In this document: positions 41,436-41,636 of the stretch, piece by piece
How the letters are laid out: each line of letters starts with the position of its first letter
Position numbering within the stretch: position 1 is the first letter of the stretch
Assembly (NCBI GenBank): GCA_900540345.1
Contig: UQFK01000001.1
Coordinates: forward strand, 215,386 to 279,385
Length of the DNA: 64,000 nt
Source of the DNA: an uncultured Eggerthella sp.
Lineage (GTDB): Bacteria > Actinomycetota > Coriobacteriia > Coriobacteriales > Eggerthellaceae
Direction: 5' to 3'
Program-made: the position numbers and the translations under genes
The notes under the pieces: model-generated
What the model was told of the DNA's origin: nothing
What the model saw: only the letters and a program-made list of their open reading frames with translations
Database searches by the model: none

Positions 41436-41636
41436 CTTTTGCAGCAGAAGGAGCCAAAACTGCAAGAGATTTGCGCTTGTATGCACGAAATCAAGCCTAA
41501 AATCAAATAATTGAGCATCAAGACTTCACTCGCACTATCAAAGTAAGCAAAACCCCAGGTCGGTTTTTTATATAACATCTCTTATGTACATACAAGCGTA
41601 AATTCGCTGCATTTTTTTGCGGTTTTGCTGCATTTC
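41436..41636. mobile_element. MITE-like repeat element, copy B.
   Basis: Left end CTTTTGCAGCAGAAGGAGCC...AACTGCAAGAGATTTGCGCTTGTATGCACG. Right end ATGTACATACAAGCGTAAATTCGCTGCATTTTTTTGCGGTTTTGCTGCA. Confidence 0.55.

Follow-up and report, generated by a model that had tools for sequence, protein, structure and literature searches.

A family of intergenic repeats with conserved inverted arms in human-gut Eggerthellaceae and its likeness to REPINs

REPINs are interspersed repeats, doublets of REP units that form hairpins, in which conserved ends enclose a less conserved spacer of fixed length and in which singlets are remnants; they are inherited vertically, duplicate very slowly and decay after the partner RAYT transposase has been lost (PMC3116915; bioRxiv 10.1101/2021.07.10.451892). 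Here we describe a repeat family that is new, although of a familiar kind, from a 64,000-nucleotide stretch of an uncultured Eggerthella sp. (contig UQFK01000001.1, positions 215,386 to 279,385; hereafter the window). The window contains five genuine copies, A to E, of a non-coding repeat of ~205 bp that bears two conserved arms in inverted orientation, and three further copies, F to H, were found outside it.

The family resembles REPIN/RAYT systems in having two conserved inverted ends and a less conserved spacer of near-fixed length: the inner arm ends are separated by 96–100 nt in seven of the eight independent copies, with E as the exception at 152 nt. Both kinds of repeat are extragenic, scattered and free of classical target duplications, both leave single decayed ends (here the E arm in locus L128–130 and half of copy H in L143), and both show vertical inheritance, very slow duplication and decay of the ends in lineages that seemingly lack the system. 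Unlike the 20–25-nt palindromic REP sequences, the arms described here measure 50–58 nt and carry four phased direct boxes, and the unit spans ~205 bp against roughly 70–110 bp. Compensatory changes between arms, common in REPINs, are absent here, an extra internal motif is conserved, and the host is an actinobacterium of the class Coriobacteriia.

ERIC/IRU elements of enterobacteria are intergenic imperfect palindromes of 100–200 bp with no known transposase or clear target duplication; ERIC is conserved from end to end and presumably acts within transcripts. The present repeats are likewise imperfect, intergenic palindromes of moderate copy number that are kept at orthologous sites across species, whereas only the arms and one motif are conserved, no RNA-level signal is seen and there is no sequence similarity to ERIC/IRU. 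Helically phased direct boxes in two inverted ends with TG...CA termini are also found in plasmid iterons and in Tn7-, Mu-, IS21- and Tn402-type transposon ends; the latter, however, flank kilobases of genes and come with 5-bp duplications, while here ~100 nt are enclosed and no duplication is present. [quoted passage not shown] What it has in common with Correia/NEMIS of Neisseria and RUP of pneumococcus (PMC2229807, PMC10969869) is the form of short, non-coding, AT-richer intergenic units with terminal inverted repeats, the internal protein-binding or hairpin motifs and, as we infer for the present case, the dependence on a trans-acting enzyme.

All five copies that a sequence-only reading had placed in the window were recovered, with their limits refined to the following coordinates and their sizes to 205–267 bp; the strand gives the polarity of each unit as defined by its central motif.

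Element A: 12584-12798, minus strand, 215 bp, 40% G+C; arms 12584-12643 and 12740-12798; motif GCAAAACACCAGTTCAGATTTT at 12660-12681 (minus); between the tRNA-tuf operon (minus) and putP (minus).
Element B: 16274-16484, minus strand, 211 bp; arms 16274-16328 and 16426-16484; motif CATAAAACCCCAGCTCGCAGTTTT at 16345-16368 (minus); between the genes of an aspartate aminotransferase (plus) and a gamma carbonic anhydrase (plus).
Element C: 41432-41637, plus strand, 206 bp; arms 41432-41488 and 41584-41637; motif GCAAAACCCCAGGTCGGTTTTTT at 41547-41569 (plus); between the conserved rplW terminator (41698-41731, minus) and the NUDIX gene (promoter-like site 41275-41247); the copy under which the sequence-only reading was filed.
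Element D: 49800-50004, plus strand, 205 bp; arms 49800-49854 and 49951-50004; hairpin with a 12-bp stem at 49887-49919; motif GATAATACCAGGTCAGCATTCTT at 49915-49937; between the convergent panD (plus) and the gene of a CBS-domain inorganic pyrophosphatase (minus).
Element E: 58599-58865, minus strand, 267 bp, centre extended to 152 nt; arms 58599-58657 and 58807-58865; motif GCAAAACCGCAGGTCGTAAACC at 58715-58736 (minus); between the divergent uppP (minus) and a gene of the auxin-efflux-carrier family (plus).

Several searches delimit this set. A 27-mer arm probe matched the window four times at up to three mismatches, against zero matches expected from 100 shuffles. A profile hidden Markov model (HMM) of the arm detected ten full arms at 38–50 bits, which form five inward-facing pairs, and no other arms in the window. 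As a control for the HMM, 853 kb of unrelated bacterial loci, chosen for holding a 16-mer of the arm, were scanned and gave only matches of 16-mer size at no more than 19 bits. A repeat finder grouped the left ends and the right ends as families and paired them as inverted repeats of 28–52 nt. The elements have a G+C content of 38–44%, compared with 51% for the window. All five stand between conserved genes, and no open reading frame (ORF) overlaps them other than unsupported ones, 12268-12777 being an example, which bears out the strictly intergenic placement already noticed in the letters of the sequence.

Alignment of 17 arms yielded the consensus TTTTGCAG-N17-TTTTTGCAAGAGATTTGCGYTTGTATGCAC, with TGCAG, TGC, T.CG, TA and AC as invariant positions and a similarity across copies of roughly 80–90%. 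Each arm has four TGC boxes, namely TTTTGCAG, TTTTGCAAG, ATTTGCG and TATGCAC, which follow one another at 21, 11 and 10 nt and are each preceded by a T-tract. Since these spacings approximate whole helical turns, all boxes would lie on one face of the helix, and the two box arrays of an element face each other. The terminal inverted repeats open with 5'-TGCAG and close with CTGCA-3', giving TG...CA ends. The shared start sequence attributed to all copies held in part: the arms are conserved throughout the family, but B-left and D-left open with CATGCAG and not with TTTTGCAG. Two arm variants, TTTTTGCAAGAG and AAAAATGCAGCG, were distinguished, and neither is tied to the left or right side or to the polarity of the centre. 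The flanking DNA was rejected as part of the unit, since beyond the arms the copies have nothing in common except ~15 nt, GATTTCCAAAA, that follow the 3' arm in D, F and H.

The centres seem unrelated at first, yet their pairwise alignment scores beat those of shuffled controls, with z values of up to ~5. Judged from these alignments, they are weakly homologous, that is, distant and polar homologues and not unrelated filler. The copies align over their full length when they are oriented by a conserved central motif, GCAAAAC(C)CCAGGTCRG followed by a T-run. The order of the unit is then a 5' arm, ~68 nt of variable sequence that often includes a hairpin, the motif with its T-run, ~28 nt, and a 3' arm; a second, weaker motif, GYGTTTAGAGGGA or GATTTGAGGTG, comes after the 5' arm in several copies. 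Similarity among copies is limited to the arms and this weak homology of the centres. The centres were also considered as antisense guides, a candidate that was rejected because their complementary matches elsewhere in the window were not above chance.

Contigs with 99.6–99.99% identity to the window come from human gut metagenomes, and proteins that match those of the window exactly or nearly so carry the names Eggerthella sp. or Eggerthellaceae bacterium. Relatives were graded by the identity of their inorganic pyrophosphatase (PPase) protein, the gene of which lies in a region of synteny kept among them; the nearest named relative, Anaerotardibacter muris, has 85% identity in this protein. 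The family occurs with intact copies at non-orthologous loci in at least two other related genomes, and a scan of metagenome contigs with the two-arm pattern returned four loci, including L124. The copies found outside the window are as follows.

Copy F: metagenome contig, flanked by genes for a C26 peptidase and a NiaR-like protein.
Copy G: locus L126, with an extra partial arm (inner 30 nt) inside it, at 653-682, 23 nt from the left arm and oriented like the right arm.
Copy H: metagenome contig, after rpoA-rplQ.

Copy G may be a nested or recombined element. L124 was dropped as a separate copy because it is a 2-kb chimera that joins two loci inside an arm: its bases 1–155 are 97% identical to the flank and left arm of E in the window, and the rest is 98% identical to F. 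Copy H was also found in L148, which, judged by a shared sample, probably belongs to the window species and thus contributes a sixth copy, again downstream of rplQ. Six copies in the ~99 kb sampled correspond to ~1 per 16 kb, which by extrapolation would amount to ~100 copies per 2 Mb. The 8 kb adjoining the window at each end yielded no further copies, and relatives with 85–87% PPase identity had no arms in the ~21 kb inspected from each. For A, C, D and E, the two to four independent assemblies compared per site run collinear with the window and carry these copies in the same orientation. A 16-mer, TTGCGNTTGTATGYAC, proved too unspecific as a probe for genome contigs, with at least 119 chance matches, and its match in L051 (Chlorobiaceae) was discarded as chance. 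No repeats of this type described for Eggerthellaceae were found in the literature, and there is no Rfam model; as far as the sequences go, the family appears to be confined to a small clade of human-gut Eggerthellaceae.

Evidence on conservation comes from two loci. At site H, two family-carrying species have arms that are 0.82 and 0.81 identical and a motif that is 0.93 identical, compared with 0.52 in the centre before the motif, 0.43 after it and 0.37–0.41, with many gaps, in the flanks outside the element; third codon positions of the adjacent ribosomal genes are 0.80–0.89 identical. Because an orthologous locus has retained arms and motif amid neighbouring DNA that is saturated, the copies appear to be maintained and not merely left to decay, and such maintenance fits repeats of the REPIN or ERIC type better than a classical burst-and-decay MITE. 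In a third species (L143), only the motif and a decayed 3' arm, scoring 8 bits against 44–54, remain at site H, fused to the rplQ terminator.

At site E, the relative with 93% PPase identity (L128–130) has a solo arm, the orthologue of 58807-58865, which is ~88% identical, while the other arm is missing. This solo arm is altered at positions that are invariant in the family and scores 20 bits when left out of the profile and 39 when included, against 43–48 bits for the window arm. The same relative has no intact element at site C, where its spacer measures 285 bp versus 627 bp in the window, or at site D, where the spacer measures 172 bp versus 860 bp; a weak arm-like remnant (E = 0.04) adjoins its panD terminator. 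A look-up of P0064 gave only further strains of the species in which D has no intact element. Arms and motif stay near consensus in some genomes and decay in sister lineages.

We give slightly better than even credence to the view that these are long-lived palindromic interspersed repeats, non-autonomous, MITE-like in form and REPIN-like in their dynamics. The absence of compensatory hairpin changes, as expected of REPINs, and of target duplications, as expected of MITEs, led us to file the family under neither. In behaviour the repeats would be old and REPIN/ERIC-like and would act at the DNA level. The anatomy, the missing coding, promoter and RNA-pairing signals, the distribution among relatives and the uneven conservation are observed; the trans-acting protein, the mobility and the upkeep of the arms are inferred. 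The sequence-only reading had proposed non-autonomous elements mobilised in trans. What stands of this proposal is a multi-copy family of inverted repeats that is non-coding, intergenic and patchily spread among lineages, with no transposase nearby; indeed, no transposase is encoded in the window. Patchy spread, different loci in sister species and single-arm relics are as expected of a non-autonomous repeat that needs a trans-acting factor. The narrow distribution, the absence of any cellular context and the decay in some lineages likewise point to a repeat dependent on a trans-acting protein that some lineages have lost. Conservation at the level of sequence in two inverted arrays of phased boxes is the signature of cooperative protein binding, by analogy with multi-site transposon ends or iteron arrays.

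Under the same view, the arms are predicted to be bound cooperatively by a single trans-acting protein, putatively a transposase or recombinase or a derivative of one, whose gene lies elsewhere in the genome. This protein might copy the unit at a very low rate, its presence would keep arms and motif near consensus, and its loss would let copies decay to single arms.

Several points weigh against the idea of long-lived, non-autonomous repeats. Direct evidence of movement, that is, a target duplication or a precise empty site, is missing. The sequence-only reading had suggested looking for target-site duplications and for a cognate IS with matching ends, and neither turned up. With the flanks read at the TTTTGCAG and TGCAG boundaries, no duplication of at least 3 bp was present at any of the eight copies. 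No precise empty site was seen at C or D: relative to the genome with 93% PPase identity, the indels in these fast-evolving spacers measure 330 and ~690 bp, and as they far exceed the 205-bp element and come with no duplication, they are not clean empty sites. The window and the ~387 kb of Eggerthellaceae loci that were fetched yielded no IS with matching ends, and neither BLAST of an element against plasmid and phage collections nor a scan of viral contigs gave a match. No partner gene was found in the window and the fetched loci, which cover no whole genome, and no RAYT (Y1 HUH transposase) gene was found in them. Copies with near-identical centres were not found in any one genome apart from L124/L125, a pair explained by the chimeric nature of L124, so there is no sign of recent transposition. 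The census is small, with eight independent loci. The E arm (~88%) shows no clear excess of conservation over the sequence beside it (~82%). Conservation at H concerns one locus in two species, and the similarity of the H centres (z = 5.9) is no higher than that of some paralogous pairs, such as F and the H copy of L148 (z = 6.1), so that this spacer may have seen independent insertion or replacement by another family member.

A host-maintained binding module is, in our estimate, unlikely but deserves to be weighed. Here the arms would be cooperative arrays for a chromosomal DNA-binding protein of a nucleoid-organising, partition-like, DnaA-like or response-regulator type, which would form a looped or wrapped complex of ~200 bp, with copies spreading by rare duplication. 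Such a module would agree with the boxes set 21, 11 and 10 nt apart and their T-tracts in phase, with arms conserved as sequence and not for pairing, with arms and motif kept at an orthologous locus amid saturated flanks, and with the decay in sister species, which loss of the binding protein could explain. The innermost box, GTATGCACA, also matches the relaxed DnaA-box consensus TTWTNCACA at eight of nine positions, a weak point since a match of this quality has a ~7% chance of arising per arm and is within chance expectation. Against such a module, the copies occur in tandem, convergent and divergent spacers and in either orientation, three of them (D, F and H) between convergent genes. Copies C and D are absent from a very close relative in which the flanking genes and operon structure are unchanged, and the family is missing in slightly more distant relatives, so that no conserved cellular function needs it. 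The E arm, too, is no better conserved than its neighbourhood.

A conserved regulatory or RNA module had been the second proposal of the sequence-only reading, and as stated it was not supported: there is no arm-arm covariation, no promoter in the arms, no constant orientation to genes and no Rfam match. In its RNA-level form, the element would be a small RNA or part of an mRNA, with the arm-arm stem or the central hairpins serving as a terminator, processing site or stabiliser. We regard this as quite improbable. Roles of this sort have reportedly been proposed for ERIC, BOX and Correia elements, and three of the eight copies lie downstream of convergent genes. The arms are able to pair, being 58–84% complementary within elements, but their complementarity is the same within one element (0.70) as between different elements (0.69). 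Arms are therefore conserved as sequence and not as a stem, and selection for an RNA or cruciform stem is accordingly disfavoured. An intra-arm stem of 10 bp is 76% paired, and 6 of 500 shuffles reach its observed covariation score; this result hangs, however, on two invariant self-complementary TGCA tetramers, and the stem is broken in the second arm variant. No convincing covariation was found for arm-arm pairing, intra-arm pairing or the motif hairpin. A hairpin around the motif appears in five of nine minimum-free-energy folds, at −0.5 to −5.3 kcal/mol, and is mostly no better than in shuffled sequence. Terminator-like structures had been assigned to B and E. A long hairpin flanked by T-runs can be read directly in B at 16386-16427, where a simple scan registered no terminator, and for E the scan reported a weak terminator-like site. 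The neighbouring genes rplW and panD have terminators of their own (41698-41731 and 49581-49604). In Rfam, the elements had no match at gathering thresholds, and E = 10 brought up none of any meaning.

Promoter and coding signals are absent from the unit as well. Reading of the arms and a scanner revealed no sigma-70 promoter, reading by eye alone revealed no sigma-54 or Bacteroidetes-type -33/-7 promoter, and the centres share no conserved promoter-like site. Outside the elements there are good TTGACA/TATAAT sites, as well as the strong candidate promoters of the tRNA-tuf operon (TTGACA-17-TATTAT at 12289-12261, near A) and of the NUDIX gene (41275-41247, near C). Polarity relative to neighbouring transcription is inconsistent, A running the same way as its neighbours, B and C the opposite way, D lying in a convergent and E in a divergent spacer. 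The elements have no conserved ORF. A small ORF, suggested by CGN variation in the motif and a Shine-Dalgarno-like GAGGTGA, was rejected because the motif frame has no start codon and its stops are scattered.

Little probability attaches, in our view, to the unit not being a transposon relic but serving in cis a nucleoprotein system of Coriobacteriia that is as yet undescribed. It is also doubtful, though conceivable, that the two inward arrays of four helically phased boxes serve to load a multimeric protein around a small hairpin with an AT stem and a sequence-conserved loop, CCAGGTC. The layout may recall the iterons and nick-site hairpin of HUH (Rep/relaxase-type) origins, an analogy in which we have low confidence. 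We similarly doubt that the protein would nick or remodel dozens of chromosomal sites and leave the tandem duplications by the arms as scars. The tandem arrays found near the elements are listed here.

16213-16280: 19-bp unit, 3.6 copies, continuing directly into one B arm at its outer end.
49377-49409: 11-bp unit ATGCAGTAAAG, three copies, in the same spacer as element D.
50114-50164: two short arrays (7 bp, 3.4 copies; 14 bp, 1.9 copies), 110 nt past element D.
58480-58594: 29-bp unit, four copies, ending 5–9 nt from the outer end of one E arm.
58899-58957: 20-bp unit, three copies, ~35 nt past the other E arm.

The first and fourth arrays confirm that two copies abut direct repeats, as had been noticed before. 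At copy G, a 27-bp array stands 20 nt away from the arm, and site E of the relative with 93% PPase identity shows about one copy of the 29-bp unit, three of the four units being missing. The ATGCAGTAAAG unit consists of the last panD codons (ATG CAG TAA) plus 2 nt, with the panD stop codon in the first unit; it resembles the outermost arm box TGCAGYAAA and is present as a single copy in relatives. Of the eight tandem arrays that TRF reports for the window, six fall in element-bearing spacers, against an estimate of ~3 expected for intergenic arrays. As tandem arrays favour long spacers anyway, the association with the elements is only suggestive.

Lower still do we rate a recently active classical MITE, derived by internal deletion from an IS with a DDE transposase and moved by cut-and-paste with target duplications left behind. 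The TG...CA ends (5'-TGCAG / CTGCA-3'), the several sites per end, as in Tn7-, Mu- and IS21-type transposons, and the lack of an intact element at C and D in the close relative would all suit such an element. On the other side stand the absence of duplications of 3 bp or more at the eight copies, the size of the C and D indels, which much exceed the element, centres so near saturation that no copy is young, and the absence of an IS with these ends from the sequences searched.

An inverton, in which a site-specific invertase recombines the arms and flips the centre as, for example, a promoter or terminator switch, is very improbable, for although the short segment between inverted arms, the arm variants TTTTTGCAAGAG/AAAAATGCAGCG that are not tied to centre polarity (as repeated inversion could yield) and a small serine recombinase gene ~5 kb past the right end of the window would fit it, A, C, D and E keep the same orientation in all independent assemblies of the species, the centres contain no promoter, the sites adjoin housekeeping genes or lie between convergent genes, and the recombinase belongs to a low-G+C island, part of a similar island (a 981-residue protein gene by guaA) being present in a relative with a decayed family.

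Other features of the region were recorded alongside the repeats. The S10 operon is split (36462-42090): rplW (41806-42090) ends at a strong conserved terminator, and rplB (36462-37328) follows 4.4 kb on. The 4.4-kb block between them contains the gene of a NUDIX NAD diphosphatase and, on the opposite strand, a lone ATP-synthase-gamma-like gene (39185-40132), together with a methyltransferase gene and an ORF of 93 aa. Copy C had been taken to mark the border of this insertion, but it is not the scar of that insertion, since the block of NUDIX, atpG-like and methyltransferase genes also stands between rplW and rplB in relatives without C, which have the rplW terminator too. At least the start of the block, with the NUDIX and gamma-like genes by rplW, is kept down to Anaerotardibacter muris, which indicates that the split of the S10 operon is ancestral. 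The ribosomal genes rplKA and rplJL are likewise ~9.5 kb apart (window 1-9100; L135 4078-16038), the interval encoding a HEAT-repeat protein, isocitrate dehydrogenase, aconitase, two proteins of the 2-hydroxyglutaryl-CoA-dehydratase family and a 590-aa protein without a Pfam hit on record.

Directly downstream of guaA lies an island with a low G+C content of 45% (window 62000-64000; L139 12100-21400). The proteins encoded there are one of 981 aa for which no Pfam hit is on record, an Eco57I-like methyltransferase, a small serine recombinase belonging to the resolvases, a NikA-like protein and an integrase of phage type; the resolvase and integrase genes are situated just past the right end of the window. 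A gene for a 981-residue protein also stands by guaA in the relative with 93% PPase identity. For the ORF at 63274-63942, the look-up gave no record. The gene at 55845-56975 encodes a 376-aa protein with choline-binding/cell-wall-binding repeats and has a DNA periodicity of 189 nt and a 41-nt motif that occurs six times. Between the genes of a 2-oxoacid:ferredoxin oxidoreductase and adk-secY, a 719-aa ORF (25375-27534, minus strand) gave no Pfam hit at E <= 1e-5.

Two leader sequences were also noted. A flavin mononucleotide (FMN) riboswitch (21718-21846, minus strand, 118 bits) precedes the riboflavin operon ribD-ribE-ribBA-ribH (18006-21552). In three species (L141 11070-11290, L148 11055-11275, L143 10900-11112), a 40-aa ORF and cbiQ are preceded by a block of ~220 nt; it is 79–82% identical among them, while the surrounding spacer is unalignable, and it includes a long GC-rich hairpin, CACGAGCACTTGC...CGAGTGCTCGTG. 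As it has no Rfam match at E <= 0.01, this block is a candidate for an uncharacterised leader or riboswitch.

For the biology of the clade, the interspersed repeats have both practical and evolutionary consequences. They probably break metagenome assemblies: contig L142 (10685-10711) stops 27 nt past rplQ, ~100 nt short of copy H on a probably conspecific contig, and the junction of the chimeric L124 falls inside an arm. The family could also serve as a possible strain or species marker. Interspersed palindromic repeats have been studied nearly exclusively in Proteobacteria and a few Firmicutes, and the family described here offers a compact case of ends that are kept while the middle drifts, in which profiling of genomes with intact versus decayed copies could help to find the partner protein. 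If that partner should prove to be a domesticated transposase, REPIN-like systems would extend to the Actinobacteria.

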